From the NCBI GenBank assembly GCA_964572255.1, contig CAZNEE010000003.1, forward strand, positions 25,258-89,257: a stretch of 64,000 nt of DNA, read 5' to 3'. Shown piece by piece: positions 28,144 through 53,300 of the stretch. Within the stretch, counting starts at the first letter, position 1; each line of letters starts with the position of its first letter. The notes beneath the pieces are model-generated. The model ran no database searches, was not told the origin of the DNA, and saw only the letters and a list, made by a program, of their open reading frames with translations. Position numbers and translations under genes: made by a program. This stretch comes from an uncultured Planctomycetia bacterium. Lineage in GTDB: Bacteria > Omnitrophota > Gorgyraeia > Tantalellales > Tantalellaceae.

Positions 28144-28187
28144 AAATCTCTTTCCCGCTTATTATCGCAGCTGAACTGCCGCCAAAT

Positions 28188-29447: not shown

Positions 29448-29480
29448 TTCGGCACTCCTTCTATCCGGGTATGTGCTGCT

Positions 29481-30569: not shown

Positions 30570-30619
30570 TTTTCTCTCCCTTTCTTTTTAAATTATAAAA
30601 GGTTTAATAAACAATGATT

Positions 30620-30697
30620 TATCAGACGATTTTAAACGCAGATACCCAAATATCAGACGCATATTTACCTTGCGAAAGATTAGTGAATATCTGCGTT
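30620..30697. promoter_or_regulatory. Candidate operator region upstream of GH gene (inverted and direct repeats)
   Basis: Inverted repeat AACGCAGATA (30635-30644) / TATCTGCGTT (30688-30697), plus direct repeat TATCAGACG at 30620 and 30651. The region is 5' of the 29481-30569 gene in a locus encoding a ROK regulator. Confidence 0.3.
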
Positions 30698-30714
30698 AAC
30701 TGTTATTCTTAAAT

Positions 30715-31476: not shown

Positions 31477-31534
31477 CTCGAGCCCGCTTCCCTTTACCTA
31501 TTATATTGCCCCTCAACCAAATATTTTAAATCGA

Positions 31535-32125: not shown

Positions 32126-32165
32126 CTTAACTCCTCCTCTTTTTTAGTTTAAAACCTTATTTATA

Positions 32166-33827: not shown

Positions 33828-33840
33828 ATCCTTTCTTTTT

Positions 33841-34713
33841 TTATCCTTTTAGTCCGATCATCGCTATACCTCTAATAAAATATTTCTGGAACACCAGATA
33901 CACAACAAGCATGGGAAGCGTAGCCACGACCGCTCCGGCCATGACCATACCAAAGTTCGCTCCGAACTGCCCCGTCAAGACCGCTAAGGCAAGCGGGATG
34001 GTCCTCATGCTGCTGGTATGAATAATTACTAAAGGCCAAACAAAGTTATTCCACTGCTGCAAAAACGTGAAGACAGCCAAAGTGGCAATAACGGGTTTTA
34101 TCAAGGGTAAAATAACATGCAAGTATATCCTGAACTCATTACATCCGTCTATTCTCGCAGCATCGATAAGATCATCCGGGATGCTATATATGTACTGCCG
34201 GTTGAGGAATATTCCGAACGCGCACCATGCCATCGCGGGGATAATAAGACCCTTATAAGTATTAAGCCATCCTAAATTCTTTACAATAACAAACCCCGGA
34301 ATTATATTTACCTGCCAGGGGATCATGAGTGACCCTAAAAATATAAAGAAAAGTTTATCCCTGCCCCAGAACTTATGTTTTGCGAACGCGTAACCCGCAA
34401 GTGAGGTCGCAAAAACATTAAAAATGGTAATAGATCCCGCGACAAAAACACTGTTAAACAGGACCCTGACCATGGGTACCATGCGGAAAAGATCCGTATA
34501 AGGTTCTATGGTAGGATCCTTAACGATGAAGCTCGGCGGATAAGACTGTATTTCCGAAAGAGGTTTAATTGATGTAACGAACATCCATACATAAGGAACA
34601 GCCATTGTAAGCGCCCCTATAATAAGGAAAGCGTATATGAAAGTCTTTATAATGGCCGGATCTTTTCTTATTCCTGCCCCGCGAGATAGATCTGTTTTTT
34701 CTGTTTCAAGCAT
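33841..34713 (-). CDS. Carbohydrate ABC transporter permease (MalG-like)
   Basis: Six TM helices and an EAA-like motif DAARIDGCNEFRIYLHVILPLIKP. Confidence 0.8.
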   Translation of the reverse strand: MLETEKTDLSRGAGIRKDPAIIKTFIYAFLIIGALTMAVPYVWMFVTSIKPLSEIQSYPPSFIVKDPTIEPYTDLFRMVPMVRVLFNSVFVAGSITIFNVFATSLAGYAFAKHKFWGRDKLFFIFLGSLMIPWQVNIIPGFVIVKNLGWLNTYKGLIIPAMAWCAFGIFLNRQYIYSIPDDLIDAARIDGCNEFRIYLHVILPLIKPVIATLAVFTFLQQWNNFVWPLVIIHTSSMRTIPLALAVLTGQFGANFGMVMAGAVVATLPMLVVYLVFQKYFIRGIAMIGLKG

Positions 34714-34726
34714 ATTCTTCCTATTA

Positions 34727-35638
34727 TTAGTAATCTACGGTCGTTCTCATCAAGCGCTTATTGATCATCGTAAGCATAAAAATGCAAAGGAAAATGATAT
34801 ACGCAAGAGCCGAAGCGTACCCCATCTGAAACTTCTGGAAGCCTTTGTCATAAAGATAAGCGACTATTGTAAGAGCGCTGTTAAGCACTCCGCCTATGCC
34901 GCCCTGCCCGCCTGTCATGATATATACCTGTTCAAATACCTGAAAACTGAATATAAAACTCATCATGGTAACAAATACGATCGTGGGCTTAAGAAGAGGA
35001 AGCGTCACCTTGAAAAACTTCGTCCAAAATCCCGCTCCGTCGATCTCCGCCACCTCATACATGACATGCGGTATGGTCTGAAGGCCCGCCAGAAAGAGTA
35101 TCATGTTATACCCTACACCGGCCCATATAGACATCATCATGATGGAAGGAAGCGTCCAGGCGGTGCTTGCCAGCCAATCAATAGGCTGGAACCCGAATTT
35201 CATTATAACATAATTTAAAAGACCATACTTTTCCCCCGCATAAAGCCATTTCCATATAACGGACACCGCTACGATCGCGGTAACGGTAGGCAGGAAAAAT
35301 ACGGACTTGAAAAAATTCTTTAATTTTATCTTCTGATCTATGGCGACAGCCAGAAGAAGTGATATGCATATGCCTATGGGAACAACTCCGATAACATAGA
35401 CTACCGTGTTCCTCATGGCCTTCCAGAAAAGAGGATCGTTGAACAGGATGCCGGTGTAATTTTTGAAGCCTACAAATTTCGGGGAATGGACGACATCGTA
35501 TTCGGTAAAAGACCAGAAAAAGGAGATAACTACAGGGGCTAATTGGAAGATGAAAAATAATAGAGCCGGCAATGCGATAAACAGGTATGAGACCTTCTGT
35601 TTGCTTAGCTCCTGCCAAAAAGACTCTGGTTTTTCCAT
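34727..35638 (-). CDS. Carbohydrate ABC transporter permease (MalF-like)
   Basis: Six TM helices and the motif EVAEIDGAGFWTKFFKVTLPLLKP. Confidence 0.8.
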   Translation of the reverse strand: MEKPESFWQELSKQKVSYLFIALPALLFFIFQLAPVVISFFWSFTEYDVVHSPKFVGFKNYTGILFNDPLFWKAMRNTVVYVIGVVPIGICISLLLAVAIDQKIKLKNFFKSVFFLPTVTAIVAVSVIWKWLYAGEKYGLLNYVIMKFGFQPIDWLASTAWTLPSIMMMSIWAGVGYNMILFLAGLQTIPHVMYEVAEIDGAGFWTKFFKVTLPLLKPTIVFVTMMSFIFSFQVFEQVYIMTGGQGGIGGVLNSALTIVAYLYDKGFQKFQMGYASALAYIIFLCIFMLTMINKRLMRTTVDY

Positions 35639-35839: not shown

Positions 35840-38800
35840 TTATGCTGACAATAGAAGCTGTCTTCTAGTATGAAGCCTGTCTTCCTTAAAAGGCCTTATC
35901 GGCATATTAAGCATAACGTTCCTGATAAGGAATAAAAGGTGCCCAAAAGCCTGGGCCTTAAGTTCTTCAGGAAGAATTTTCATGGCTCCGCTCGAAATTT
36001 CCTTGCGCGGCAGCATAAAATATAATGCCTCTCTTTTCATGGATCTGCCTGTCAACTGCTCTATGAATTTCTGAAGATCATCGGCAGCATTGCCTTCGTC
36101 TTTCTTGCTGATGTCTTCAGGCGTCACCGCCGCCAATAATATTGCCGTTCCCTCCACTTCTCTGGTGAAGTACCATCCTTTACCCTCGAGATCTTTCTCC
36201 TGATCGATATCCGGTATGACCAGTATTCTTATGTTGCCCTCCTCAAGCATCTCTCTGACTTCCGGATTTGTGCTGTTAACCGCATCCTGGATGTTGGCTT
36301 TAGTGCCTACCAGAACATTTATCTCGTCATCTTTCAGATCCATTTCAGCTACCTTATCAAGCCCTAACTTTGCCTGATAAGTCCTGATGGTAATGTTAGG
36401 ATTAACATTTTCTCTTAACTGCTGCTGCTCCCATTTATGCGAGCCCACATCATTTGAATCATCTCCCGGCGCGAACATCTCAACAGGCTGGATCAAGTTT
36501 ATTGTCTTGCCGGCCGTGACCGAGACATGTTTTCTGAGATTTTCATACGATGTATATACTATATTCTCATCTCTTGTTTTTTCATACATCACTTTAACTA
36601 CGGCACGTTCCGTTCCGGTTTCAGGCTTTATTATATAATCCTGATCCTGCGGTATATTATACTTACCTATAGCCACCGGCTCTATGGGTGTGCCTTCCGG
36701 CGTCTCTACTTTTATCTTACCTTTTTGAACAATCAGACTGTGAGCTCTCGCGGCTAAAATCTCCGGCCTCCCAACAGGTTTTATGATATCGAGTCTGTCA
36801 AAAGTATCGCCGTTCTTCAAAAACACTATTTTTTCCAGCCATTCAAATTCATCTACTGCAGGCACCTCGGGCCCTTTAGCCATAGGTTTCGGGAATTCAC
36901 GCTCTTCCAGCTGCGGCGTGAAAACATCGACGATCTTTGTTCCCGCCTCGGCTATGATCTTATAACCACCGGCGCTCGCAGGCACGAACAACATGCCTTT
37001 CCCTGGAACGGCGCGCGGTATATGATAAGCTGTGCCATCTACTCCTGCCACGCTGGCTTCGCCGCCCTCAATGAGCCAAAATCTATGCAGGCTGGCAATA
37101 TCGGAAACTTCTATTACGCCTGATCCGGTAAAAGTTATTACATGCGCTTCCAAACCCTTGCTTTCAAAATTGCCCGGCATGCGTTCGATCTTGTATGTAT
37201 CAGTAGCCTCGATAACTTCCATGGACGTTATCTTGCCGACCACCGGTATAGATTCATGGATCCTGTCAAGATCAAGACCTTTTTTAGCTTCGGGATACCA
37301 TGAACGATACCTTAATCTGTCAAAATCATCAGTTGATTGAGTCGTGCCGGGGATCTGCGGCTCTACGACCGTGACTCCCGGACCAAGAGCATGCAGCATC
37401 CCGGCTTTTACGGGAATAACATCGCCCGGTTTCACTTCAACATAGTTGTAAAATTTTTCCATCTCATTCCGTAAAACTTCTATAGTTTTTATATGCACAC
37501 CGAGATGTTCGTTTTTAGGCGAAGAGGCTCTTGCCATTCTGGCGACAGGAAGGACCCTGCCGACTTTCTCAAGCTGTTTTTCATATCCCAAGTGTACGAG
37601 AACTTCGTAAAGATCTTTTAATTTACTATCGTACGCATTTGCTATGTTCTGATAAGCCTCGCTGACGCCGATCTTTTGGCCTTCGTGTTCCTCTATTGCT
37701 TCTTCGCTGAAACCGAATATGATCCTGGCTCCCTCTTCCGCTTCCGTAACAAGCCAGGATTCATTCTTTGTTTCGTGGAACTGGACTGAAAGCCATTCCT
37801 GCGGTGTAAGGAGTTTTACCAGCGGCATTTCAGCGCCATAATCCATTACGGGTTTTTCGCCAAGTGCTTCTTTTGGAACTTGAGCAATAACACCGAACAT
37901 GGGAGCTGCCTCATCCTCTATTTTCAACAAAGCGGTCTTAGGTGCCATGAAACCGTCCCAATATTCTCCTATTTTGACGCTGACTATCTGATCTTCTCTT
38001 CCCCATTCCTTGGCTTCCCTGTAAGGTTCGCTGTAAACCGGTTTACCTTCTTTAAGCGCAGTAGCTATAAGGCCTTCAGGCGTGTTTTCATCAATTGTCC
38101 TTGCGGCCCAAACGCCGGGTGATTGTGTTTGAGGCGGCGCATCTTTTTTAAGCGCCTTATCGACCATCTTTTGTACGATCGCGACTCTCTTAGCAAGCAT
38201 TTCCGTACAGCGATCCGATGTTTTTGCGCCTACATAAAATCTGAAAATGGGTTCATTGCCCGAAGGACGCAAATGAACAACATCGTCATTGGCGAATGTC
38301 ATCCTTATTCCGTCAATAAGGTTCAACATCACGATCTCATCTTCAAATCCCATTTCGCTTGTGAAATAACCTTTAATGTTCTTTCTGATCTCCAAAAGCT
38401 CATCGAGCTCATCATCTGTAAGTTTATATTCAGCCTCATCTTTATCTATCGCAGTAACGCCTTTTTCGTCATCAAACTTTACCTCACCTATTTTACTTTT
38501 CTTATCTTTCGGAGAAAACATCGCCACTATCGCTTTCCCGACATCAGGAGTATATTCCGGTATTTCCCCTTTTTCAATAATATTGCCGCTCTTATCTTTT
38601 TTGTCGCCTGAAACTTTGCTTGCGTCAGTTTGATAAGAAGCAAGCCTTGAGGCTATGAGTTCTGAAGCTTTCTGGCCCTCAGCGATCTGTCCTATAGCAA
38701 GAAGAAGCGGAAGCGCGGCATCCCGTGATGGGATCGGAAGCAGTTCTTTATTGCCTCCGGGGATCTTGAAATTGGTTGCCGTGAGAAAACCTCCGTTCGA

Positions 38801-41800
38801 TTCCCAGCTGATAACTTTTGCTTTCTTCTTGTCTTTATCGGAAAGCGGAACACGATAATCATTCATGGCTTTAATGACATACGGCGAACCGATCTTTGTT
38901 CTTTTCACTTTTATTTTTTTACCTTTAGCGGATTTCATGTTTTTAAGATCTTTAACCATCTCCGGATTAGCGCTTGTGGCTATCGCTATAAAGTCCGGTT
39001 TTAGAAACTGTGCGGCTAAAGCGCCGAGTTTATCGCCCGGCAGGAAATTCCCGTTCTCATCCGCGAAAAGAGGCCTGTCAGAATCACCGTCTGTTGAAAT
39101 AATAACATCCGGGCTATACTCCTCTGCAAACTGTTTAAGAAGATCCCTTGTTTCGTCCGAAAGCTTTTCCGTATCAACAGGAATAAATTTATCATCACTT
39201 CTTTCAACAGGTATAATCTCAGCACCTAAAGCCGCCAATATTTTCTCTAATATATCCCTGCCGACGGCTGAATGCTGGTAAAGCACTATTCTTTTGCCTT
39301 TCAAGAAATCTGCCGGGAATGAATCAATATAACGCTGTATATAAGCTTCTCTTGCCTTCTCATTCACGGATTTAAACTCGGCAGGAGCCATCTTAAATAT
39401 GCCGTCTCCGCTGAACTGGAGTTCATCCCAGTCTTTAGCGTATATTTTCTTTCTTATATTTTTAACATTCGCAAGAATGCCCGCCTCGTCGTCTTTTAAA
39501 ACCTCGCCGTTTGGTTTGACGAACTTGATCCCGTTCCTATCATCGGGAATATGGCTTCCTGTTACCATGATACTCGCGCGTCCGTTCTGCATCCCCCAGT
39601 AAGTAATTGCAGGCGTCGGCAGTTCGCCGCAATAATCGACCGCGCAACCCGCCTCTTCTATAGCTTTAGCGACCGCTTTAAGGATCCTGCCGGTACTTGA
39701 ACGGCGGTCTCCGGCGATGGAAATGGTATCGCCGCGTTTTATATCCTCAGAATTTATAAGATACTCGATGTAACCGCGTGTGTTGATATAACACTCCATG
39801 TCGGTCATATTAACGACTTCATCCCTCAACCCGCTTGTCCCGAAGGTGAGTGTTTTAAATTTTTCCATTTTTTCATCAATTCTTGCGATCTCCCCCAGCG
39901 CTTCCTGACGTCTCCTTTCGAGTTCTTCCATGCTTACGCCCGCCATGACCTCATGCGTTTCTTTGAATGACAATTCATTGTTATATATAGGTACATTGTA
40001 AGTGTTATTTTTATCTCTCAGATTGGTGTCTTCGGAAACCATCATACCGACAGGCCCATTATCTGTCAAGACAGTTCCATGCCTCATTTTTTCATCAAGC
40101 GCGAGATCATCCAGCTTGCTGCCCAACGATTTATAGATACCACTATGCTGGTTTAGAACAGTTTTTCCTGTTCTGGAACTGGATACAGCAAAAGAATCCG
40201 TTATCTCCACATCCCCAAGCGTGGAGTCCTTAATTACACTTCCGTTTACTTTGCCCGCACCCGTGATCTTGCTGTTTATGATAACGGAATTTCTGACCTT
40301 AACATCTTCGCTTATCTCTGAATTAATTATGATATTGCCGTTTGCATCCCTTACTCCGGAAATACCTTCGATCTTACGCGCAACAATGCCGTCCGGACCG
40401 TCGTCATTTATAGCCAGATATTTTTCTCTCATGGCTTCATGCTGACCTATATCGGGCCAGTAAACATTATCCCCGAGATCGAATATTTTTAGACTTAACT
40501 CTCTGCCGTATTTTTCTTTGAATATTTCTTTTACTCTTTGCACTTTTTCAAAGAACCAGGGAACCATCTTAACAAGTTCCTCTAGTTTTCCGTCAGCTTC
40601 AACAGCCTTGCCCCACTTATCAGTATCATTATCCATCGCAAGCGCCATCAAAAAATAAGGATCAAAATCAAAATATACTCCATCCTTTTTTATCTCTTTA
40701 TCAAAAACCTCTGAAGCGATGTCAAGCACATCATATGACACGGCTACAGGCCCAAGACTTATGCCGACTCTATCCGAATCAATGCCAAGCTCCTGCATTT
40801 TAGCTTTCAGGTCTTCGCGCAAAGCCTCAGCTCCATTCGGATTACGAGCCACCTGCGCCAGCATGTTGCCTTGCTCGTCAAAAATAACCCAATCCTTTTG
40901 CTTCGCTTTTTCATCGGAGATCTCATCAAGTTCCATTACCGAAACAACTTTCATCACGTCTCTTTCGGCCAGCGATTCGCCTTCTTCCGGGGCCGCAAAA
41001 AGATCGACCGAAGCGACCTGGGTTTCATCTCCCCATTTATCAAGTATGCCCCTGAATCCTCTTGCCTCAAGATATTTAGCCACAGGACCAAAATACAAAA
41101 GCGCTTCCTCAATGGCTGATATGGACTCTTTGGATCCATCAATATCCATGCTTGCCGCGGTGGAAGCGATAGCCGGTTTACGCACAGCCTCTACATCCGT
41201 AAAAGGCGACATCCTCTCGCCCTGGCCGAAAAGCATGCCTATTAAAGTCACATAATCCCTATAATTGATCTTAGCTTTTTTAGCCGCTTTTTTAATGTAG
41301 TCATAAGCGAGCAGTGTGCCTAAAAAGTTCCCCTCTCTTGTCTTTTTTTCTATTTTTCCTTTTTTTGTCTTTGTTTCTATTTGTTCCTTCAACGCGAGCA
41401 TCAAAGTGCTGTTATCGCTGTTAAACAGGCTTTTGGCCGTCTGGTCAAACCTTTCCTGCCAATCTTTTTGGTCACGTTCCATGGAAACAACAGCGACGAT
41501 CTTCACATTATCGTTCGCTTTAATGGCTTTATGAGTGTTGTCTATATTTTGAAGATTTGTCCTAAGCCCGGAATTTTCAGCTATTAATCTCTCTTCGTCC
41601 AACTTCGTCCTTTCTTCAGCTTCTTTTTTCCTTTTTTCGCCTATCTTTCGGCGTATGTCCATGATATTGACTTTCTCACGGACTTCCTTCTCTGTCATCC
41701 CATATACTATATGATAAATTTCGTGTAATGCCAAGCGCTGAATTTCATCCTCTGTCAGAATTTCGAAATCTTCGGCATCCATGTACATGTTAGGGGTCAA

Positions 41801-44128
41801 AGATGTGTGGCCCGGAAAACGTCCGGGATGAGCTATCAGGTCGAGCGGGATCTTATCTTCGTCATTTTCGACCGCTTCATTGAATTTTTCATATATTTTC
41901 AACAGCCCGGGGATAGAATATAACTTGATGCTGATATCCTTGACCGTATGGTTCTTGACATTTACATCGATTTCCTGAACATCATCATCGTACCCCAGGT
42001 CCCGGCCAAGGCCCTGACTTAACATGCCGCCGAGCACAACATTAATATTTTTATGCTGTTTATCGGTAAGAGCTTCTACCCTGACAAGAACACTCGCGGC
42101 TTCATTGCCCGGTGAAAATCTGTTCTTGAATACCACCCTTATAACATTTTTGGTCGCTTCGCTGAGCTCATGTCCTGTCCATTCAGCACTGATCTCGCAC
42201 TTACGGATGTATGCTTTTAAAATATCTTTCCATTCATCCGACGCTTTCTGCCAAACTCCCGGATCGGCGTTCTTCTCTACTTCTTTAAGCCATTCCTCCA
42301 CCAGTTTTATTACCACACCGTCATGGAAGTCTTTGGCTATTTTTTCATAAGGTATAACTTCTTCGCCGGCCTGCTGCATCTTTTCATAAACATCCTTGAG
42401 CTCCTCGTCTATTTCTTTAAGCTGATCAGGATGTTCAAGAAAAAGCGGTGTAAGATAGACCGCTCTCATCAAGGGGTTCATCATTCCGCTTTCCGGCTTG
42501 GCAACCTCTTCACTTGATTTTTTGACGTCGCTCATGCCGGCTATCGCGGCGCTTTCAGTGATAATATCTTCAATGGAAGTTCTCTGGTTAGTAAGTACTT
42601 TTATGTAAGGAGTTTCAACATCTTTTGTGATCTTGGGAGTAATAACAACGTAAGATATGCCTTTTTTCTCGAGTATATCTTTCATGCCTCTTGTGTGGAA
42701 CCCTCCAGCTATCATGACACATGCATTTTCTCCGGATTTTTCCATTTCCTTAAGGGTGTTCTCGATCAGTACATTGTCTCTTTTCATCGCTATCTCGTAA
42801 AAACTTACCATGTCAGGAAGATTTTCACTGACCTGAAGAGGTATCCCGTTCAGGGAATAATTCAGCGCATATTTATTGCACAGATCCCCAATAAAAGCGG
42901 CAACGTCATCTAGAGTAAATTCATCCTGATATTTTTTGAAAGTGTCATAATCGCCGTTGGTAAGTTCGATATTCACAAGATCCAGATACAGATCGATCAT
43001 GTGCGCGTATTTATCAAGCGTTCGCTGCGCCTCATCGGTAAATAATTTGTCTTTGATCCTTGTTTTCGCGATCTCTATCTCATGAAAAAGCCCTTCATTA
43101 TCGATCATGTCATAAAGTTTGGTGTAAAGGTAATAGTAAAAAAGATTGGGATATTCCTGGACTATCGGCAGATTATGTGTTTTGGCAAGTTCTCTTAAAT
43201 AAGTGTAAAATTCAACCGCCTTTATGTGCCCCTTTTTGAATCTTATGCTCTCTCCGACAAGCGCTGTCATCTCTTCTTTGGTGAGTTTATCGCTTAAAGC
43301 GTCGATATAACGGCTTCTTTCCTGATCGACTATATCAAAATCTATTTTTTGTTCATATTCCAGAGTCTCTATGAGCTTTTTTAAATTGGCAAGATCTTCC
43401 AGTTTAACGCCTTTTTTCGACGCATTCTTATAGAGATAATCCGCGAACGCGCTAAGTTCCAGTTCCTTTTCTCCAAACGCCGTGATTCTCTGGTCAAGCT
43501 CTTTTAATTTTGGAGGATAAATAATTGATTTGAGCCTGCTTACTACTGTCTTTAGATCGGTAAAATAATTCTCTATATTATTTTTATGAGGGTAAACTTT
43601 GGTGAAGGCTTTAAGGTTCTTAATGTAATAATCTCTCGTTTCAGCACCGAATATCGTGCCGTTATAATTTGATGTGATCGAATAAAACTCCGTACCGGTT
43701 ATCTCGCCTTTTTTCATGAAATAATCGGCGACTTCCTTGCGGATCTCAGCATCCGGAAAGGCCCTGAACCAGCTTGTATCTACCAGGCCTTCGGCACCTT
43801 CCACTGAAATAACATCAACACCGCATTCGGTATGAAGCTGATCGAGCATTTTGTTGATATTGTGCTGGGCTTCATAATTACAGTGGGCATCCTGGATGTG
43901 AATTATGATCTTGTCTGTCTTACCTTCGAATTTTTCCTTAACAATCCCGTAATCAAGAGCAACTCCGATATCCTCAACAGTAAGCTTATCTGTTATCTCT
44001 TGAACTTCGGGCGCGGTTACTTTGTTTTCCGGCACCGTGTAACCGATACTGTAGAAAGAAAATGTAAATAAGACAAAAAATGTCGCAAGTTTAAATAATA
44101 ATGTTTTTTTCATCCCTTCACCAAACAT
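35840..44128 (-). CDS. Giant multidomain protein 1 (2762 aa)
   Basis: Single uninterrupted ORF; the likely start is MKKTLLF at about 44113 after GGTGAAGGG. Domains in order: N-terminal signal/TM; a TraB/GumN/Tiki-like module (nt 42540-43920); a GMP-like nucleotidyltransferase tail (YWPDIGQ) with left-handed beta-helix repeats (about 40200-41000); a four-domain phosphohexomutase (FGTSGLR, TGSHIP, DGDSDR, RPSGNEP; 38200-39845); a type-I mannose-6-phosphate isomerase cupin (GDVIPVKAGMLHALGPG; 36900-37900); and a C-terminal region of unknown function. Confidence 0.75.
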   Translation of the reverse strand: MFGEGMKKTLLFKLATFFVLFTFSFYSIGYTVPENKVTAPEVQEITDKLTVEDIGVALDYGIVKEKFEGKTDKIIIHIQDAHCNYEAQHNINKMLDQLHTECGVDVISVEGAEGLVDTSWFRAFPDAEIRKEVADYFMKKGEITGTEFYSITSNYNGTIFGAETRDYYIKNLKAFTKVYPHKNNIENYFTDLKTVVSRLKSIIYPPKLKELDQRITAFGEKELELSAFADYLYKNASKKGVKLEDLANLKKLIETLEYEQKIDFDIVDQERSRYIDALSDKLTKEEMTALVGESIRFKKGHIKAVEFYTYLRELAKTHNLPIVQEYPNLFYYYLYTKLYDMIDNEGLFHEIEIAKTRIKDKLFTDEAQRTLDKYAHMIDLYLDLVNIELTNGDYDTFKKYQDEFTLDDVAAFIGDLCNKYALNYSLNGIPLQVSENLPDMVSFYEIAMKRDNVLIENTLKEMEKSGENACVMIAGGFHTRGMKDILEKKGISYVVITPKITKDVETPYIKVLTNQRTSIEDIITESAAIAGMSDVKKSSEEVAKPESGMMNPLMRAVYLTPLFLEHPDQLKEIDEELKDVYEKMQQAGEEVIPYEKIAKDFHDGVVIKLVEEWLKEVEKNADPGVWQKASDEWKDILKAYIRKCEISAEWTGHELSEATKNVIRVVFKNRFSPGNEAASVLVRVEALTDKQHKNINVVLGGMLSQGLGRDLGYDDDVQEIDVNVKNHTVKDISIKLYSIPGLLKIYEKFNEAVENDEDKIPLDLIAHPGRFPGHTSLTPNMYMDAEDFEILTEDEIQRLALHEIYHIVYGMTEKEVREKVNIMDIRRKIGEKRKKEAEERTKLDEERLIAENSGLRTNLQNIDNTHKAIKANDNVKIVAVVSMERDQKDWQERFDQTAKSLFNSDNSTLMLALKEQIETKTKKGKIEKKTREGNFLGTLLAYDYIKKAAKKAKINYRDYVTLIGMLFGQGERMSPFTDVEAVRKPAIASTAASMDIDGSKESISAIEEALLYFGPVAKYLEARGFRGILDKWGDETQVASVDLFAAPEEGESLAERDVMKVVSVMELDEISDEKAKQKDWVIFDEQGNMLAQVARNPNGAEALREDLKAKMQELGIDSDRVGISLGPVAVSYDVLDIASEVFDKEIKKDGVYFDFDPYFLMALAMDNDTDKWGKAVEADGKLEELVKMVPWFFEKVQRVKEIFKEKYGRELSLKIFDLGDNVYWPDIGQHEAMREKYLAINDDGPDGIVARKIEGISGVRDANGNIIINSEISEDVKVRNSVIINSKITGAGKVNGSVIKDSTLGDVEITDSFAVSSSRTGKTVLNQHSGIYKSLGSKLDDLALDEKMRHGTVLTDNGPVGMMVSEDTNLRDKNNTYNVPIYNNELSFKETHEVMAGVSMEELERRRQEALGEIARIDEKMEKFKTLTFGTSGLRDEVVNMTDMECYINTRGYIEYLINSEDIKRGDTISIAGDRRSSTGRILKAVAKAIEEAGCAVDYCGELPTPAITYWGMQNGRASIMVTGSHIPDDRNGIKFVKPNGEVLKDDEAGILANVKNIRKKIYAKDWDELQFSGDGIFKMAPAEFKSVNEKAREAYIQRYIDSFPADFLKGKRIVLYQHSAVGRDILEKILAALGAEIIPVERSDDKFIPVDTEKLSDETRDLLKQFAEEYSPDVIISTDGDSDRPLFADENGNFLPGDKLGALAAQFLKPDFIAIATSANPEMVKDLKNMKSAKGKKIKVKRTKIGSPYVIKAMNDYRVPLSDKDKKKAKVISWESNGGFLTATNFKIPGGNKELLPIPSRDAALPLLLAIGQIAEGQKASELIASRLASYQTDASKVSGDKKDKSGNIIEKGEIPEYTPDVGKAIVAMFSPKDKKSKIGEVKFDDEKGVTAIDKDEAEYKLTDDELDELLEIRKNIKGYFTSEMGFEDEIVMLNLIDGIRMTFANDDVVHLRPSGNEPIFRFYVGAKTSDRCTEMLAKRVAIVQKMVDKALKKDAPPQTQSPGVWAARTIDENTPEGLIATALKEGKPVYSEPYREAKEWGREDQIVSVKIGEYWDGFMAPKTALLKIEDEAAPMFGVIAQVPKEALGEKPVMDYGAEMPLVKLLTPQEWLSVQFHETKNESWLVTEAEEGARIIFGFSEEAIEEHEGQKIGVSEAYQNIANAYDSKLKDLYEVLVHLGYEKQLEKVGRVLPVARMARASSPKNEHLGVHIKTIEVLRNEMEKFYNYVEVKPGDVIPVKAGMLHALGPGVTVVEPQIPGTTQSTDDFDRLRYRSWYPEAKKGLDLDRIHESIPVVGKITSMEVIEATDTYKIERMPGNFESKGLEAHVITFTGSGVIEVSDIASLHRFWLIEGGEASVAGVDGTAYHIPRAVPGKGMLFVPASAGGYKIIAEAGTKIVDVFTPQLEEREFPKPMAKGPEVPAVDEFEWLEKIVFLKNGDTFDRLDIIKPVGRPEILAARAHSLIVQKGKIKVETPEGTPIEPVAIGKYNIPQDQDYIIKPETGTERAVVKVMYEKTRDENIVYTSYENLRKHVSVTAGKTINLIQPVEMFAPGDDSNDVGSHKWEQQQLRENVNPNITIRTYQAKLGLDKVAEMDLKDDEINVLVGTKANIQDAVNSTNPEVREMLEEGNIRILVIPDIDQEKDLEGKGWYFTREVEGTAILLAAVTPEDISKKDEGNAADDLQKFIEQLTGRSMKREALYFMLPRKEISSGAMKILPEELKAQAFGHLLFLIRNVMLNMPIRPFKEDRLHTRRQLLLSA

Positions 44129-44341: not shown

Positions 44342-47300
44342 TTACATACTTATTAATGCAGCTTCATAGCTCATTCTTTCCGCTTCAAGTTCTTCATCAA
44401 TAGCTATCGGCTTTATTCGGAAAATATAATAGCCTAATATATCCTTTTCCAGGACGGCATTCTTGTTCATGAATTCCGGAATTTTGTTATCATTTACCAT
44501 TAGTGAAATGATCACGTTGTAAAGCTGGGATTCCAGGCCTTTTTCCATCTTGACAAAAAGCATCTTGTCCTCGTTCAAAAGGTGCATACCTTTTTCGTCA
44601 TTCTGTAGCATAAGATCCCTTGTGTCGCCTATCGCTATATCTTTTGCTTCGGCCCCGTATTTTTCATTTATAAGGGTATAGATCTTGCTCACGCTGTCTG
44701 AGTCCCTGAACGAAATATCATCTTTTGATATAACATCATCCACTCCGGCCAGCTTGAGAATCCCGTCAATATTATCTTTCGTAATATCTTCACCTTCCAG
44801 TCTTTCGCGCAGTTCCCCTGCTATTCTTATATGGAGTTTTACGGGATATTCGCCTTTGCCGAGTTTCCTGTAATCATCGATCGCTTTTCTATGCTCGTTG
44901 GCAAGCCAGCGAAGCCCGTTAATATCTTTAACTCTGAATGTAGCTATCTTTGTGCCCTCAAGCTTTGATAGTTTTGCTTGAAGGTTCTCTGCGTCTTTTG
45001 CCTGAAGCCTGTTCATCTCGGCGATCCTGTCAAATTTATACTCATATACCTTTAAGTCCGAGGACCTTAAAGACCTTAATACCGCAAAGCGGTTTGATAT
45101 GATATCCAAGACTTGCTGAATTTCGCCCATGCTTTTTCCGCTAAGTGAGGTCATTTCCGGACTTCTATTAAATTCGCTTATAAATTTTGCCTTATCTTTC
45201 TCTTCAATATCCGTTATAAATTCATGTAATACTTCCTGGAAATCTCCTTCCGCGCCCTGGATCAAACCGGCGGTATACGCACCGTACTCCCTCCTGAATG
45301 CTTCTAATTTTTCCAGATTTTCTTCCTCGCTGCCTGCGCTTAAAGCCACGCCTTTTATGCCTCCTATATTGCTTTTGAGCATTTCTTCATCTATTCTCTC
45401 CTGCGAAACTCCGATAACTCCGATAACTATGCCGATCGATTCTTTCTGATGAATATAGTCATTTATTTCTTTAGGCAATTCATCGTATTTTGGACAATGG
45501 ATGCCATTAGCTATAAGGCCTATTTTTTCATGAGCTACAAGAGCTTTTCCGAGATTATAAAGTCCTTCCATCTCTGCACCGCGCTGAAGGGCTAACTTTA
45601 TGAAATCTCCTCTTAACGTGCCCGGAGCCGCTTCGAAAGCCTTGGTCGCGCCTACGACAACCCTTTTGAAGATGTCCTGGAAGGGGATGGATTCAAGCTT
45701 TTCATCATCAGGATATTCCGAATCGGCGCCAAAATCTCTAACAAGCTGTCTGCGGGATACACGCGACCTAAGAATCACCATCTCAACGCCGCGGTTAAGG
45801 CATTCTATCGAGTATTTCAGCAGCCTTACTGATTCAAGATCAGGATGTTCTTTATCCACCTTCATGAACCACGTGTAGAACTTTTCTCCGTTTCCTGTTT
45901 CAAGGGCTTCTCTTGCGTCTTTTACATCAATACCCTCTTTTTCGATATCATTAACGGAATATTCAAGTCCGCTGCCCGCGCCCCAACGTTTCAACACTTC
46001 ATCCATTCCTATAGGGCCGATCTTCTTTCCTACGCGCCCTACGTCAAAACCTTTTTCTTCCAAGTATCGTACGATACGCAGGCGAAGTTCTTCCGGTATC
46101 CCCATCTTGAACAGCATGACCGCATGATTTTCTTCTCCTGGATCTTCCTCAAGGCCTTCCCGCAAGGTTTTGTTCAAGATCTCCGCTTTGTCCTGGTCTG
46201 TGGAATATATCTCTTTTTTTAATCTCTCGAGAACATCTTTTTCAGTTACGGTTTCACCGTCGATAACACTGCCGTATGAAGATATGATCTCCCTCAGAGC
46301 TTCTTTTTTCTTCTTAAAAAGATCCACGGTTTCAGATCTCGAAAATGAATCCACAAAAAGAAGATAAATATCCGCGAACAGATCATCCGAAAGTTCTATC
46401 CCTTCCGGGAATTCAATTTCCCTTCTCACCTCAAAAAACAAAAAATCCTCAAAATCGCTTACGCTCAAAAGGACTTTTTCCGCATTTAAGAACGACGGCT
46501 GTATCTCGTTGGTTTCCTCTAGGATCATATCGTTATAGAACTTCTCGCGGTCATTCTCAGACATGCTGCGTGTTATTCTGTTCGTGCGAAGACGGCGCAT
46601 CAATTTTACTTTTCTCATTTGAGACCTGGTCCACACGGCAACTAGACTATCGAACAGTTTCTCTCGTTCCCCTTCAAGAAACGCTTCATTACTGCCGAAA
46701 AGGCGTCCGGTGATAATATAGACATCTTTCTTGTTCGGTATGATCTTCTCGACGAAATCACCTGTAATGAAAGTCCCGTTCTTTCTCTCCGTAATATCAA
46801 CATACAGGTTTTTCCTGTCAAATTTTCTGTCACTGTACTTTTCAATATCTTTTATTCTTTGGACCACTTGTTCCTTGAGGGCTTTATCTTTTACAAGCCA
46901 ATTGCCTTCCTCATCAAATAGCTGCTGCAGGAGCAGGGTCTCTTTGACCCTTATGACCCGCGCTCCGTTTTTCTTAAGATCGTCAACCAATTTCCTTATA
47001 GCCTCGGTAAGCTCTTTCTCTTTCACCTTGCCTGACCCGTCTAAATACGCGTTCGATCCTATAGTGTCTATAATGCGGATCCTCTTGCTCTCTTCCGGAA
47101 CGTAAAAAGGCATGAAAAGCTCGTCATGACCGCCGCGGCCATTTCTTAGGTTGTGTATGAAGCTCCTGAATCCAAGAGTTCCTTTGAAGCCGAATTTCCC
47201 GGAAATCCCCAAAGGCGTCTCTCTTCGCGAGTGATCCAACAGCCATCCCGATTCCATGGAAATGCGGTTGACTTTAACACTGTCCCCCATTTTTTCCTTC

Positions 47301-50300
47301 AGTTTATGGGCTATACAATTAGATACGTATTCCTTTCCTACGTCACGGCCGCCGAACAAGCCGATTATAGTAACCCTCCCCTCGTTAAGATTGGTCTGGT
47401 AAGAATTTTCGACCTCTTTCACTATATCCTCTATTCCCTCATCAAAATCGTTTTCGCTTATCTTTCTAAGAACGCTGGACTCATGTAAAAGACCCGCTAT
47501 TTGCTCTTCCAGCGTAAGGGATTTATCCGCATCGTAGAAAAAATCCTCGTGGAGTTCTGCCAGTCTTTTCAGCACAAGACGTCTAACTTCAGAATACGGG
47601 CTTTTTGCGGCCTGCATAAAGATAGGTATGCTTTTATAAAGCCCCTTGACCTCCGCCTTGACCTCCTCTTTGTTTTGCTCCTTACTTTCCTCGATATTAC
47701 GGGCCACCTGGCGTTCTATTATATCGGATACGGATCTGCTTGCCGCTTCCAGGACCGACTTGTCTTCCTCGGTACCGGCTATTTCATTGAGAACTTCCTT
47801 GGCTTTTTCCTCGAATATCTCCACATCTACTTTCGATAAAGCCAAGGCAGCGGCTTTACGGATCTCCGGACTCGGGTCCTCCTTCAGGAGTTTTTCCAGA
47901 GGATAAAAAACTATCAGATCATGATATTCAAGTAATCCGTTTATGCCCAACAAAGCATTTAAGAAGCTGCTTACAAGAACGTCGCTCTCTTCCAATCTTA
48001 TCCGGAACCTGTTCTTGGTTGCCGGTATCTTGGCATTATGGTGTACCATAACGGGATGAGGCTGAAAATCGGCAAGTTTTGAAACCGCGGTTTTGATCCT
48101 TCGCGCTCTCTCGCTTACCATGCCGTAATCTCTTTCGATTATATCCTGCTGCAAGACCGGATATTCGCGCAGGTTTTCGCGCGCATCCCCTATAAATATA
48201 TCTACATAGATCGGCGCGACAACGGCCTTCACTTTGGCTTCGGCCTCTTCTCTGGACTCTTTATATTTATCCATGCGGAACTGGATCGAATCCTCCCGCT
48301 TTTTAATGGATTCTTCCAGGCTCTTCTTTTCAACGATATATTTGAACATATAGTCATATGTCCCCACCGCTATTTCATCCACCACGCTGATATGTTCTCC
48401 GTATTTTACTCCATTCAGTATCCCTGACGTTTTAAGCTGCCACCAGATCCCGTCGAGGACTTCCCGCCACCGTTCTTCTCCTGACGTGTATTTTTGGTCC
48501 AGGTCCTCTAATACCTTTTTTTCAAGTTCGGGATAAATACCCTCATATTTATCCTCTTCTTCCCTGATCTCTTTTAAAGAACTTATGACAAAATGTCTGT
48601 ATTCATAATAATCGCCTAAAGTGTCGCGCGAAATGAAGAACATCTCATGGTTTGATTTTTCCTCACCGCGGATCTGATCCATTATAAAAGCGGTCTGGAA
48701 AACGCTTCCCGCGGCCCTTGCAAGATACACCCATTTTTTTATGCCTTTAACTTCTTTTACGGTTTTAGATGCATATTCTCCCTCAGGATTAAAGTAATAG
48801 GTCCTGTAAAAGCTCCCATCGGCCCTTTTAGCGACATAAGACCTTAAATACCAGTCTTTTTCTATATTTTCCATGAAATGTGTAAAATACGGGTTGGAAC
48901 GAGTGACCCTGACTATATCATTAAAAGAACAAAGCGGGGTCATTTTCCATTTCTCGCCCGAATCCTCGACTACCGTTCTTTCGATCGATTCGGTCCTTAT
49001 AATAGGGGAATTGCCGTAACTTATATATTTTTCCCCGTCTATCATTGTGATCATCGAATCGACGCCGTAATGCGTTCTTTTGTACCATTTATATTCCTTG
49101 TCGCTCAAAGGACGCAATTGGTCGGGATGCTTTATGATATTTATAAGTCCGGGATTGGTTTCCGTACCGTCCCCGTAAACAAAAAATTTAAGATCACGAT
49201 ACTCGTTATACTTCTCTTCATAAAGATCAGGATCTTTATCCATAACCCCGTTTGATTCCATTTCCAGCAGCTCTATTTCCAGACCATCAAGGAACATATC
49301 GGCCCTTTTTTCCACCTTCTCCACTATCTCGTACATTGTGAAAGGCCTGTAGTATTTACCGTCTTTAGTGAACCTAAAATCCAGGCTTCCCAGTGCTCGC
49401 CAGAATTTCGTTAGATTTTCAGAATAAGGATCTATCTTTACCCCTATCATGTTCGAGGAATGGCTCATTTCGACCACAACGCCCGCTTTCTTGAAATCCT
49501 TGCCTATCTCATTTTTAAGATCTTCAATGCCTATCGGCAGGTCTTCGGGATCTAATTCTATTTTTATTTCGTGATAAGGCCCGATGATCCTGGATTTTTT
49601 TCTTAAACCGTACTTTTCCAGGCGTTTATTGATTATCCCCATTATACTTGAAGGGCTTTTTTCCGCATCTTTCTTGGGCAGGGGAACTCTTTTAAGCTCC
49701 GCCAGGGCTTCGATGATCTCTATTTTTATCTTATTATTTATATTTACATCGCTAAGCGCTTTTATCAGTTCAGATATGGCCTCCGGCATGCCCAATGCCT
49801 TAAGCGCTCTTGCCCCTTTGATCTTTTTCTTTTCGTCGCTGCTTTTCAGGTTTTTAACAGCATTGTTAAACTTCCTTTTATTCGACTGTATCTTTTTCTT
49901 CTCTTCCTCGGCCGATAATGCCCCAAGAGCTACGAGTCCTCCCAGCGAAAAAATTCCCGCAAAAAGATCCGGATGATCAGCTTTTAATTTTTCGATGCGG
50001 CTCTTATATTTTTCTCTTATTACCTTGTCTTTCAGGCAATCTTCGAGCATTTCTTCTACCAAAGGATATAACCAGCCCTTGCCTGTCTTGAATTCAAGAT
50101 ATCTTAAAAGAAAATGTGCAGCCTCCTCCTTTTTACCTTCAGAATAATAGCGTTCAGCACAAATATAGCATGAAAATGATGCTCTGCGGGGATTACCCTT
50201 AATCATCTCTATAGCCTTTTTTCTATCTTCAATTACGCCTTTATCAGAATAAATCTTCCAAAATATGAAAGTATCGCTTTTTTCTAGGGCTTCCCTTATT

Positions 50301-53300
50301 TTTTTCATTCTTTCTTGTATATCCTCAACCCTGTTAAATTTTCTATAACAATTAAGAAGAAATGAGTTGGACACTATATAAGTTTCTATAAGCCACTTGC
50401 TCTCTCCGCTTTTGCGTTTTTCCAACAGTTCGACAGCTTTCTCATAATCTCCCATAATAAAATAACTAATGCTTACCGCCATAACAATTGCGTGGTGATC
50501 TTTTACATTTACATCCGTTATTTTATTATACTCATCAATACATTCCTGATAACGCCCACGCAAAGCAAGTATTTCAATATTCCCCCATTTACATATTTGA
50601 TCATTATTTTCACTACGCGGATATTTTTCTTTATCATCAAGAACTTCTTTGAATACTTTTTTCGCTTCATCTAATTCAAAATTATTCGACATCCACCACC
50701 CCATATATGCTTTCATTCTATTGACCTCATATAAATCTTCTGGGGGATACTCGAGGTACTTTTTAGCTATCCGAATAGCATCTGATAAATTATTATTGTA
50801 TGAAAATTCAAAAGCAATTTTTTCATAAAACATACTTAATTCTTTTCTTACTTCATTATTATCTTTATATTTTTCTTCAATTAAATCCGCACATTTCAAC
50901 GCTTCCTCAACATTCTTCTGTTTGTAATAAATCTTTGCCAGATGTAAAAGTGCGTGAGGGGCAAATTCCTCACCCGGATGGTCCTGAGATAATTTTTTAA
51001 ATGTATCGATGGCATCCTGTTCCGATCCTATTTCCAGATACGCAAGTCCCATATTGTAAGCCGCGTATACGGCAAAATCTGTACCCGGATATGCCATGAT
51101 TATCTTCTTGCATTCGGTAATCGCCTCATCATATTTTTTATCTTTAATAAAATCCTCTATTTTGCCTTCAAGCTGAAGACGTTTAATGCGTGCTTCTTCT
51201 TCAAGTTTTTTGCGTTCTTCTGCAATACGCTGCCTTTCTTTTTCGGCTTCCTCAGCGGTTTTTCTTTTTTCTTCTTCAAGACGTTTTTGCTCTTCCTGCA
51301 AAGCAAGTTCCTTTTGTTTTGCTTCTTCAGTTTCTTTCTTTATGTAAATAAACGTACTTATGCCTGCTATAATCACCGCAATAAACAGAATTAATCCGGG
51401 AATAAAGAGTTTTTTATTTCTTTTTAGATACCGCTTGAATTTTTCTCCTCTTGATAAAGGCCTTGCTTTGATCTCACGGCCTGCCAGATACCGTTGGATG
51501 TCTTCCGCTGCTTCCTGCGCGGTCTGATAACGGTCCTCCGGGAACTTCTCTATCATTTTCATGATAATAGTGTTCAGGTCCTCATCCTTCCTTATCCCCC
51601 TGTAAATCCTGCTTCTTCTTTTTTTTACAGGAACCGGTTCTTCGTGTAAGATCTTGTTTAAAACCTCCATGACTTCTTTCCCTACAAAAGGCGGATGACT
51701 TGCGAACATTTCATATAGCATCGCACCGGTTGAATAGATGTCATTCCTCCGGGTCGGATCATTGCCTCTTGCCTGCTCCGGAGGCATATAGGAAGGCGTG
51801 CCCATTGCTGAACCTGTTTGGGTAAGCTTTACGGATGATTCGATATTTTTAGCCAGACCGAAATCCATTATCTTGATCTGACCTTTTTTATCTATGAGTA
51901 TATTGGACGGCTTTATATCGCGATGGATTATCCCCTTGCTGTGCGCGTATTCCAGCGCCTCCAAAACATCAACTATTATATTCAAAACCTGTTCTTTGCT
52001 TTCAAGCTCCTTATTTTCCATCAACTTATCCAAAGTGGTTCCTTCCACATATTCCATGGTAAAATACGGATACTCGTTGCCGTTATCTCTCAAGGTACCG
52101 AAATCATAGATCTGAACGATCCCGGGATGGGTCAATTTCGCTACCGATTGAGCTTCTTCTATGAATCTTGCGATATCTTTTTCGCTCGCATTTTCAAGGT
52201 TTTTCATCAGTTTCAACGCCACGTAACGGTCCAGTTTCGGATCATACGCCTTATAAACCACGCCCATTCCGCCTTCACCCAGTTTTTGAACAAGCTCATA
52301 CTGGCCTAACTGGCCTATTGATTGAACGTGCTTGCTTGTTGTGCGCCGGTATTTATCCAATATAGTTCCGCCGGGCGTTTCTTTAAGGTGCCTTTCTGAA
52401 GCAGGTGTTTCATCCGCCATTGTAGCGTCCGGATCACGGACTATGGTCTCTGTGAAACCGACACTTGCTTCAAATTGTTTTTTGCAGCCGGGGCAAGTGA
52501 AATTCTTGCCGATATCAGATGATTTTATACGGAGTAATTTGTCGCAATGCGGGCAATTGATGTTTATTTTCTCCGGAGCAGCCGGTTTTTGGACAGCAGC
52601 TTCTACGAACTGCTGATCTTGGGCTTCATCTTCTCTTATCCTGGTAAGCGCTGCGTCTTCACCTTTAGTTTCGGGAACCTTTTGCTCGCCCAGAACAAAT
52701 GGTTCATGGCATACAGGGCACTCCGCCTGCTGTCCTAATAGTTCCTTTTTTACGGAAAGTTTTTTCTCGCAATGCGGACATTCTATCTGGACTTTTTCCT
52801 CTCCGACCGGTTTCTGTTGAACCGGCTTCTGTTTTTGTTGTACCGGTTGTCCCGGCTTGAACCTGGTTTCAACGAACCTGCGCATTGTATCATTCGCTTT
52901 ATGGCTATCACGTATTGCGACTCTCTTGCCCAGTTCCTGTTCTTTATCATATTTTGTTGTTGCGTGCCTCTTCTCATCATGAATGAGCTTTCTTAAAAAC
53001 TTTTTATCATTTTCAGAGGAAGACATAGCTAAACTTCTGAAAGCCTTCTCGCTAAGGTAAATATATTTACCCCGAGGTTTTTTTGTCTTCGGGTCAAATC
53101 GTGCGCCAGCATGTGAAAATACCCATTTGTCCTGAGCGGGATCCACAAGTATAAAATTCGGGTCCGTAAGCGACTTGCTCTCTATTAAAATCACGCTTAT
53201 ATCGCTCGGAAGTTCTGTATACAAGTCTTTTCCGTACAGTTCTATAAGCATATTTGTAAGGCCCAGATCGCTGGAAGTATATTTATTTTGAGCGATCCCT

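Follow-up and report, generated by a model that had tools for sequence, protein, structure and literature searches.

A probable TIKI-superfamily fold at the conserved N-terminal head of very long proteins in Omnitrophota

Proteins of the TIKI superfamily share a common core, in which a central parallel β-sheet is flanked by α-helices, and a functional set of two His and two Glu near strand ends together with a conserved basic residue (PMC6254334). In the Ras/Rap1-specific endopeptidase (RRSP) this site comprises E3900, H3902, E3930, R4001 and H4030, and the corresponding His-Glu pair of Bcr135 is H85/E113; for erythromycin esterases (Ere) and TIKI proteases, the His-Glu pair was proposed to activate water (PMC6254334). 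The present analysis concerns an N-terminal domain of about 540 residues (hereafter the head), which very probably adopts this fold and is encoded twice in a 64,000-nucleotide stretch (hereafter the window) of contig CAZNEE010000003.1 (assembly GCA_964572255.1, positions 25,258 to 89,257, forward strand; Omnitrophota, Tantalellaceae), i.e., at the start of two giant genes, G1 and G2.

Omnitrophota are characterised by long and giant proteins, which presumably form the basis of a host-dependent or predatory lifestyle. Published surveys of these proteins describe giant open reading frames (ORFs) with few annotated domains, the N-terminal regions being mostly devoid of identifiable ones; TraB, Tiki or GumN are mentioned in neither of the two preprints on Omnitrophota giants, and the Tiki-fold head in none of the three Omnitrophota papers covered. 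Peptidase domains of the C39 and S8 families, located near the N-termini of Omnitrophota giants, were proposed as domains that might cleave the giants or another substrate (West-Roberts et al. 2023, preprint). A signal peptide and/or transmembrane (TM) helices were reported for 94 % of the long Omnitrophota proteins, and a "multi-enzyme metabolic cluster" class was described, in which very long polypeptides carry several enzyme Pfams, PGM/PMM among them, as well as a signal peptide and/or TM helices (10.64898/2026.06.07.730766).

The right-hand third of the window is made up of three tandem long ORFs on the minus strand, G3, G2 and G1 (ORF listing and translation; all coordinates are those of the window):

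35840-44128, minus strand: G1, 2762 amino acids (aa)
44342-55555, minus strand: G2, 3737 aa
55878-63977, minus strand: G3, 2699 aa, with a GTG start just within the window end

Pfam covers each of the three proteins only in part. The closest relatives of the region are all metagenome-assembled genomes (MAGs) of Omnitrophota, and a 2762-aa representative in the public protein library (P0267) is identical to G1.

G1 and G2 share a homologous N-terminal region. Comparison of their first 600 residues by BLASTP yields one collinear alignment of G1 6-523 with G2 2-521 (29 % identity, 54 % positives, E 2e-79), in which the motif pairs IIHIQDAH/IINIQDAH, VISVEGAEG/LIALEGAEG, AGGFHTRG/TGGYHSKG and ISYVVITPK/LSYLIVSPK are all present and mutually aligned. 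The original prediction, made from the sequence of the window alone, had proposed a common module over residues ~70-530 of both giants on the basis of these motifs, and this homology is confirmed. The coordinates assigned to it, 42540-43920 (residues ~70-530 of G1) and 53995-55345 (71-520 of G2), were correctly placed; the conserved unit is slightly larger, as it starts with a hydrophobic helix at residue 1 and reaches to about residue 540:

42509-44128, minus strand: head unit of G1
53936-55555, minus strand: head unit of G2, residues 1-540, with a helical insertion at residues 164-463

When the full-length proteins are compared, the head is the sole significant similarity between G1 and G2, and the search for further similarity outside of it was negative. 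According to tblastn, the window contains exactly two copies, those of G1 and G2, and G3 carries none. The two copies display no similarity at the nucleotide level (blastn), which in combination with only 29 % protein identity marks them as old paralogues rather than products of a recent duplication. Their ancient origin is also evident from Ca. Tantalella remota, where a G2-like head gene is followed by a G1-like one in the same tandem order (3104 and 3060 aa), each copy of the window thus having its own orthologue in other genomes. A recent duplication of the two heads, which would have undermined the proposed module, is ruled out by the negative blastn result and these separate orthologues.

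An AlphaFold2 (AF2) model of G1 residues 1-540 was generated from a multiple sequence alignment of 51 head homologues (predicted local distance difference test score, pLDDT, 88.3; predicted template modelling score, pTM, 0.81), and a second model was built with G2 as target (pLDDT 84.8, pTM 0.77). Both predict the same order of elements, i.e., an N-terminal helix, a disordered linker, an α/β half-core, a helical insertion and a second half-core. In G1, strands 61-67, 74-80, 106-109, 113-115 and 158-162 belong to the first half-core, and strands 469-475 and 492-498 to the second. The elements of the G1 head are located as follows:

44045-44128, minus strand: signal-peptide- or signal-anchor-like helix, residues 1-28, with a Lys-Lys n-region (hydrophobicity scan; helix 5-26 in the AF2 model)
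43637-43966, minus strand: N-terminal half of the α/β core, residues 55-164, with the QDAH and VEG motifs
42734-43636, minus strand: all-helical insertion of ~300 residues, residues 165-465, pLDDT >90 over most of its length
42509-42733, minus strand: C-terminal half of the core, residues 466-540, with the GGFH motif

In its predicted central parallel β-sheet and flanking α-helices, the head corresponds to the common core of the TIKI superfamily. Among 48,164 chains, the same seven TIKI-superfamily structures rank at the top for both independently built models (two scores per structure):

HopBA1 (5t09): 10.2 and 9.1
Tetrahymena TraB-family protein (8bqs_DQ): 9.8 and 9.1
2rad: 9.7 and 9.7
ChaN (2g5g): 9.1 and 9.7
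2qgm: 8.9 and 9.0
EreC (6xcq): 8.9 and 8.4
RRSP (5w6l): 8.3 and 8.8

The likeness to the Tiki/TraB/GumN/erythromycin-esterase superfamily, at first suspected from short motifs, is therefore supported by the predicted structure as well as by residues of catalytic type, and we regard the assignment of the head fold to this superfamily as very probably correct.

The candidate catalytic residues, together with an invariant Tyr of the helical insertion, are encoded at the following positions:

43889-43891, minus strand: G1 D80, QDAH motif, at the end of strand 74-80
43883-43885, minus strand: G1 H82, QDAH motif
43799-43801, minus strand: G1 E110, VEG motif, after strand 106-109
43124-43126, minus strand: G1 Tyr335, helical insertion
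42779-42781, minus strand: G1 R450, on the last insertion helix with N457, just upstream of the C-terminal half-core
42695-42697, minus strand: G1 H478, GGFH motif
55322-55324, 55316-55318, 55232-55234, 54212-54214 and 54128-54130, minus strand: the respective candidates D78, H80, E108, R448 and H476 of G2

G2 has thus kept every one of these candidates. Among the 51 aligned members, the columns of Q79, D80, H82, Q88, E110, G111, G475, G476 and H478 are invariant, and R450 and N457 nearly so. Extension to 221 heads aligned with hmmalign (including 138 library representatives from 50 %-identity clusters) leaves this picture essentially unchanged, with D80 and H82 each conserved in 219 of 220 sequences, E110 in all 220, R450 in 211 of 212 and H478 in all 211; Tyr335 is kept in 216 of 217 ungapped sequences. 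Order and spacing agree with the published sites: (i) the acid-x-His element is D80-x-H82 in the head family and E3900-x-H3902 in RRSP, (ii) the distance from His to Glu (H82 to E110) is +28, as in RRSP and Bcr135, and (iii) the distance from Arg to the second His (R450 to H478) is +28 versus +29 in RRSP. In the AF2 models the candidates reside at C-terminal β-strand ends or on a preceding helix, and judging from these strand-end positions the five residues would cluster in space. The 2His/2Glu-plus-basic set of the superfamily is accordingly represented in the head, as mapped via sequence order and secondary structure, with Asp replacing the first Glu. The supposition that the motifs QDAH and GGFH (through their His) and VEG (through its Glu) mark conserved catalytic-type positions is borne out, since all three residues belong to a near-invariant constellation with the order and spacing of RRSP and Bcr135. 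For the label "metalloprotease" this holds only in part: catalytic-type residues are retained, but the label itself is not established, because RRSP is metal-independent (PMC6254334).

Relatives of the head are numerous outside the window. A profile search of 1.84 billion representative proteins (clusters at 50 % identity) retrieved 10,170 clusters at E ≤ 1e-3 and 7,062 at E ≤ 1e-30. Within the best 150 of the 10,170 matches, on which all length and position counts rest, the head starts within the first 54 residues in 149 cases. Proteins of >700 aa account for 131 and those of >1500 aa for 105 of these matches, with 72 exceeding 2500 aa (maximum 5568 aa), 33 having 1501-2500 aa, 26 having 701-1500 aa (many truncated) and 19 having ≤700 aa. 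A scan of one genome per GTDB species yielded 370 head relatives, essentially all in Omnitrophota, and few in Auribacterota (e.g., Ca. Auribacter fodinae). In about 70 of 80 loci the head runs into a long ORF (700 to >3300 further residues), and six copies stop ≤22 residues past the head. Occurrence of the module at the N-termini of giant genes in other genomes is thus well documented.

The N-terminus of the head is signal-like in most of the family. A hydrophobic 17-mer starting around residue 10 is found in 194 of 207 complete heads, with Lys/Arg residues around it being more frequent on its N-terminal side in 80 % and less frequent in 6 %, and many heads resemble by eye Sec signal peptides that end in an AxA-type site (e.g., FSNIAFA↓ETPK). 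These features agree with the 94 % of long Omnitrophota proteins reported to carry a signal peptide and/or TM helices (10.64898/2026.06.07.730766).

What follows the head differs widely. The parts of the two giants are arranged from the N- to the C-terminus as follows:

G1: signal-like helix, Tiki-fold head, minigluzincin-like HExxH mini-domain, hexapeptide/NDP-sugar-transferase-like region, PGM/PMM, weak phosphomannose-isomerase-like match, conserved C-terminal domain
G2: signal-like helix, Tiki-fold head, two zinc ribbons, Ser/Thr kinase (residues 1086-1348), TM helix, TPR, TM helix, HEAT repeats, further unannotated regions

Domains I-IV of PGM/PMM span residues 1428-1980 of G1 (Pfam scan). 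With their enzyme and repeat Pfams, their N-terminal hydrophobic helices and their relatives in Omnitrophota MAGs, G1 and G2 fit the "multi-enzyme metabolic cluster" class. Across loci, heads of the G1 type are 59-69 % identical, whereas their cargo is either 24-44 % identical, alignable only in part, or not alignable at all. When G2 is compared with the first giant of Ca. Tantalella remota, identity amounts to 47 % over residues 1-680, conservation between these orthologues thus reaching about residue 680 (53516), and the remaining ~2500-3000 residues are without detectable similarity. At several other loci, too, two successive genes carry a head. The notion of a conserved leader attached to different giant cargo is hence strongly borne out, the head being conserved and the cargo divergent or non-homologous.

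Heads also occur frequently as separate proteins of ~500-620 aa, which terminate precisely where the domain does. Of about nine informative loci with such stand-alone copies, six have a long gene immediately adjacent on the same strand, the neighbours encoding 2792, 3040, 2918, 3083, 3300 and 57,421 residues. The last of these is found on a 176-kb Omnitrophota contig (JBAQBM010000021.1, GCA_049293575.1; locus L085, 1-9538), where a 502-aa stand-alone head gene lies 460 bp downstream of the 57,421-residue gene, which indicates that the head also accompanies truly giant genes. Where a stand-alone head precedes a giant (loci L002/L003, L073 and L087), common upstream genes encode a Glucosamine_iso family protein, a 638-aa DUF4954/hexapeptide (GMPPB_C-like) protein and a HAD phosphatase; this neighbourhood fits the sugar-phosphate/nucleotide-sugar theme of G1-type cargo.

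Taken together, the head likely represents a divergent, hitherto unannotated hydrolase of the TIKI superfamily, probably engaged in membrane-proximal processing, and at the same time the constant export or anchoring end of proteins built from a head and a variable cargo. Retention of the complete catalytic-type constellation suggests an active hydrolase, and catalytic activity appears moderately probable. The His-Glu pair would activate water for attack on a peptide or ester bond, and the helical insertion with its invariant Tyr335 might act as a lid or substrate platform. As a maturation or processing hydrolase close to the membrane, the head could operate in cis or in trans, and it would provide the conserved export or anchoring end of the head-plus-variable-cargo architecture. 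A role tied to the long protein is indicated by the N-terminal position, the signal, a conservation much higher than that of the sequence behind it, the non-homology of the cargo and the adjacency to giants when unfused. That the giant itself is the substrate is conceivable but doubtful. The analysis demonstrates the homology of the two copies, their predicted fold, the conserved residues, the domain architecture and the distribution of the family; enzymatic activity, substrate, topology and any involvement in processing of the cargo are inferred.

Several observations weigh against this interpretation. Significant matches to any family of the TIKI superfamily were reached by no sequence method, and Pfam and NCBIfam scans of both heads at E ≤ 10 returned nothing above threshold, only noise and a weak echo of ChaN. 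The TraB/GumN model PF01963 matched neither G1 nor G2 nor a single one of the 51 members, even at E ≤ 10; of the two motifs typical for TraB/GumN proper, the second (GGFH) conforms, whereas the first (QDAH) lacks Gly. The erythromycin esterase model PF05139 likewise gave no match above threshold. PF04187 (ChaN, a family of the Tiki superfamily) matches G1 438-480 weakly with the C-terminal part of the model (12 bits, E 0.17), and weak matches over R...GGxH occur in 8 of the 51 members (best E 0.054). Across all scans with matches to PF04187, including those of "core-only" chimeras from which the insertion was deleted, E ranged from 0.03 to 0.17 and scores reached 12-15 bits versus a gathering score of 27.7, too low for membership; the Pfam scores of the chimeras were no better than those of intact heads. 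Searches of the Protein Data Bank (PDB) with a single sequence (phmmer) and with the family profile (hmmsearch) retrieved nothing relevant, and hhalign against a profile of E. coli YbaP (TraB) was not significant (E 0.03 over 25 columns). In the latter case, the matches listed for YbaP were all close enterobacterial sequences (Enterobacteriaceae; Neff ~2), and with so narrow a profile the outcome is a weak negative rather than a refutation. The anticipated detection of the TraB/Tiki relationship by profiles therefore failed for PF01963, PF05139 and PF04187 as well as for profile-profile alignment, and on sequence evidence the head falls outside every existing Pfam family of the TIKI superfamily. 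Further reservations concern the site itself, as the first acidic residue is Asp instead of Glu and the first "GxxH" lacks Gly (QDAH), and the topology: in G2, zinc ribbons and a Ser/Thr kinase separate the signal-like helix from the TM helix that comes next, which is hard to square with export of the head. If the N-terminus of G2 directs export, typically cytoplasmic modules would end up outside the cell; the cargo of the head-bearing proteins consists of enzyme types that are normally cytoplasmic, which creates a topology puzzle. Moreover, stand-alone copies at loci L074 and L080 have no giant neighbour, pointing to a function of the head beyond giant processing alone, and for proteolytic processing the minigluzincin-like mini-domain described below is an equally good or perhaps better candidate than the head.

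Some of these points could also be accommodated if the head were a hydrolase or a binder of cofactors or small molecules unrelated to the cargo, such as an Ere-like esterase or a ChaN-like binder at the membrane, fused to other modules by the multi-enzyme tendency of Omnitrophota and N-terminal merely because it brings its own signal or anchor. The superfamily includes non-proteases (erythromycin esterases, heme-binding ChaN), stand-alone forms of ~500-620 aa are common and in part (L074, L080) lack a giant neighbour, and G1-type cargo represents coherent sugar-phosphate metabolism (PGM/PMM, PGI, hexapeptide transferases), as in the "multi-enzyme metabolic cluster" class. However, an ordinary enzyme module would not be expected to be N-terminal in 149 of the best 150 matches and never internal, to precede non-homologous cargo (kinase, TPR and HEAT repeats in G2 versus an unrelated 3104-aa protein), to recur at each gene start of tandem arrays and to be far more conserved than the cargo. 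We therefore consider an activity independent of the cargo unlikely.

Alternatively, the head could be a non-catalytic leader for export, sorting or anchoring, comparable to the trafficking domains of polymorphic toxins or to C1-C2 of the Pasteurella toxin (PMT), its conserved residues serving folding or binding. A constant head on variable cargo, preceded by a signal-like segment and placed strictly at the N-terminal end, would suit such a leader, and inactive members of the superfamily exist, PMT being devoid of the 2His/2Glu motif (PMC6254334). Yet, unlike in PMT, the constellation is essentially invariant in the head even at ~20-25 % identity to G1, and such conservation of polar side chains (His, Asp, Glu, Arg) where strands end is typical of active sites rather than scaffolds, rendering a purely structural role improbable.

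A recent duplication or compositional artefact, with short motifs on a generic Rossmann-like fold producing a fortuitous Tiki likeness, could appeal to the shortness of the motifs and the sub-significant profiles, but is effectively refuted and of negligible probability in view of the BLASTP alignment over 520 residues (29 % identity, E 2e-79) without similarity in blastn, the separate orthologues, a family of >10,000 clusters, the same seven TIKI structures on top for both models, and five residues matching the published site in order and spacing.

Besides the head, the giants contain other conserved elements. In many G1-type giants, a mini-domain of the pattern HPGRGG...HExxH follows ~250-290 residues past the head:

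41711-41830, minus strand: HPGR...HEIYH mini-domain of G1, residues 767-806, with a minigluzincin (selecase-like) HExxH motif

Minigluzincins are small catalytic domains (~100 residues) with a zinc-binding HExxH motif. A regular expression for the mini-domain (in G1, HPGR...(~30 aa)...HEIYH) matches 44 of 121 long representatives, and any HExxH is present in 50 of the 121 as compared to 9 of 105 control windows. In the alignment of the mini-domain (A3), H41, G43, H76, E77 and H80 are invariant, and the A3 profile matches selecase MJ1213 (4qhf/4qhi) with E 6e-4 over 37 residues, and more weakly proabylysin, projannalysin and HtpX. G2 possesses only a degenerate version (IHDEKRH). The mini-domain is a candidate for a releasing or processing metallopeptidase. 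A second element is the junction motif [ML]-L-[AG]-P, typically K-G-M-L-A-P-Y, which is located ~61 residues past GGxH, just beyond the end of stand-alone heads; it occurs in 55 of 126 fused representatives (P0202-P0339) and in none of the control windows. The variant of G1 is M-M-N-P (GMMNPLMRAV, residues ~570-580, window ~42390-42420). The motif could mark either a site of processing or the point where the following domain begins.

At the opposite end of G1, the C-terminal 300-400 residues (window 35843 to ~37040, minus strand) are conserved up to the stop codon in 24 related giants (22-46 % identity), with neither a Pfam match nor a PDB sequence match for this domain. Since head and C-terminus are both conserved and the middle is variable, G1-type giants have two conserved ends and a variable middle.

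On a broader scale, one may speculate about a phylum-wide system of a head with swappable cargo, following the logic of MARTX and polymorphic toxins, by which Omnitrophota and Auribacterota export arrays of cytoplasmic-type enzymes and kinases behind a conserved, Sec-targeted hydrolase head. In such a system the head, perhaps together with the minigluzincin-like peptidase and the M-L-A-P motif, would autoprocess the polypeptide at the cell surface, and the cargo would be released or activated, so as to be delivered to host or prey cells or to manipulate them. We regard this scenario as distinctly unlikely at present. If the head is a processing protease, the seemingly odd export of cytoplasmic-type enzymes turns into a testable hypothesis of effector delivery.

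Irrespective of such scenarios, annotation of the head covers the most conserved part of a very large and otherwise opaque class of proteins. H82, E110 and H478 offer a first concrete, mutable handle on maturation, anchoring or export of head-bearing proteins, and the head can be used as a sequence marker to find and classify the respective genes, fragmented ones included. The superfamily in turn gains a new architecture, i.e., a core split by a 300-residue helical domain, placed strictly at the N-terminus and followed by variable cargo.

Several further features of the window may be added. Within the helical insertion, the segment corresponding to G1 ~276-324 (window ~43157-43303) weakly and recurrently matches PAH_ZNF598 in 31 of the 51 members (best E 3e-6) and DUF1722 in 27 (best E 1e-6); these echoes may reflect a paired-amphipathic-helix-like sub-domain or only helical composition. 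Centrin-like PDB matches to the insertion (E ~0.02) are weak and were regarded as chance. Residues ~985-1405 of G2 (window 51400-52600) comprise two zinc ribbons of the Cys4 type and, after them, a Ser/Thr kinase of the Hanks type, with the next TM helix at 1381-1403. G2 3582-3698 (44462-44812) and G3 2542-2660 (55998-56354) share a C-terminal domain of ~120 residues (26 % identity, E 2e-7) that ends with the pattern NDGKIP...Y.Y/F...I..D...E...Y/E..A.I/M-stop, and Pfam gives no match within the final 300 residues of G2. G3 is nearly devoid of Pfam annotation (a DUF2963 match at residues 2227-2261), comprises at least 14 strongly hydrophobic segments and contains, at residues ~1790-2250, roughly five repeats that have diverged and are recognisable at the protein level, each ~100 residues long, with a recurrent DGTYRTFEYY; tandem DNA repeats were looked for in G1, G2 and G3 and not found. 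Directly downstream of G1 (26905-35638, minus strand), a cluster for carbohydrate uptake and degradation was assigned from translations only; it comprises two ABC sugar permeases, glycoside-hydrolase-like proteins (one with a discoidin-like start), a ROK-family-like regulator and a solute-binding protein.

Among known systems, the C2 domain of RRSP from the Vibrio vulnificus MARTX toxin (5W6L) displays the same order of elements as the head, i.e., acid-x-His, Glu at +28, Arg and a His ~28-29 residues later. Both are domains of very long, exported, multi-domain bacterial proteins. RRSP, however, lies internally in its protein and is an effector that enters host cells by delivery, and the head is N-terminal; RRSP has an N-lobe for membrane localisation in place of a 300-residue helical insertion inside the core, and its first acid is Glu instead of Asp. 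Sequence similarity between the two is not detectable.

Many members of the Tiki/PrgY family are proteases that are anchored in the membrane or located outside the cytoplasm and have signalling proteins or peptides as substrates. The TraB/GumN/PrgY/Tiki family (PF01963) and the head have in common a His motif after the first strand, a Glu after the second, an R(D/N)xx helix and a GxxH near the C-terminus, the motifs GSIH, VEAD, RNLAW and GALH of YbaP corresponding to QDAH, VEG, RDNVL and GGFH of the head. The head deviates from this family by the missing Gly in the first motif, the splitting of the core by a ~300-residue helical domain and the cargo of 1.5-5 thousand residues.

Ere-like proteins carry an extra helical region beside the core. 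They include EreC (6XCQ) and the B. cereus Bcr135/136-like proteins (2RAD and 2QGM); the His-Glu pair of Bcr135 (H85/E113) is spaced by 28 residues, exactly as H82/E110 in the head. Ere proteins are soluble macrolide-lactone enzymes of ~400 aa; the insertion of the head is larger and unrelated in sequence, and structural alignments show 9-15 % identity. ChaN, a heme-binding lipoprotein of Campylobacter jejuni (2G5G; PF04187), belongs to the sole family of the superfamily with a sequence echo in the head (positions ~163-205 versus R450...GGFH478). It is likewise exported and membrane-tethered, yet it is a heme binder of only 255 aa, and nothing in the head indicates heme binding.

In genomic context, the closest parallel is provided by the C39 and S8 domains, which, like the Tiki-fold head, are found in Omnitrophota where very long proteins begin, adjacent to a predicted signal peptide. 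They differ in fold and catalytic type and are found in giants of >30 thousand residues, whereas proteins with the Tiki-fold head have 1.5-5.6 thousand. By its 300-residue insertion within the core, its Asp in place of Glu combined with QDAH, and its position as N-terminal head of proteins of 1.5-5.6 thousand residues, the head thus differs from all described members of the TIKI superfamily.

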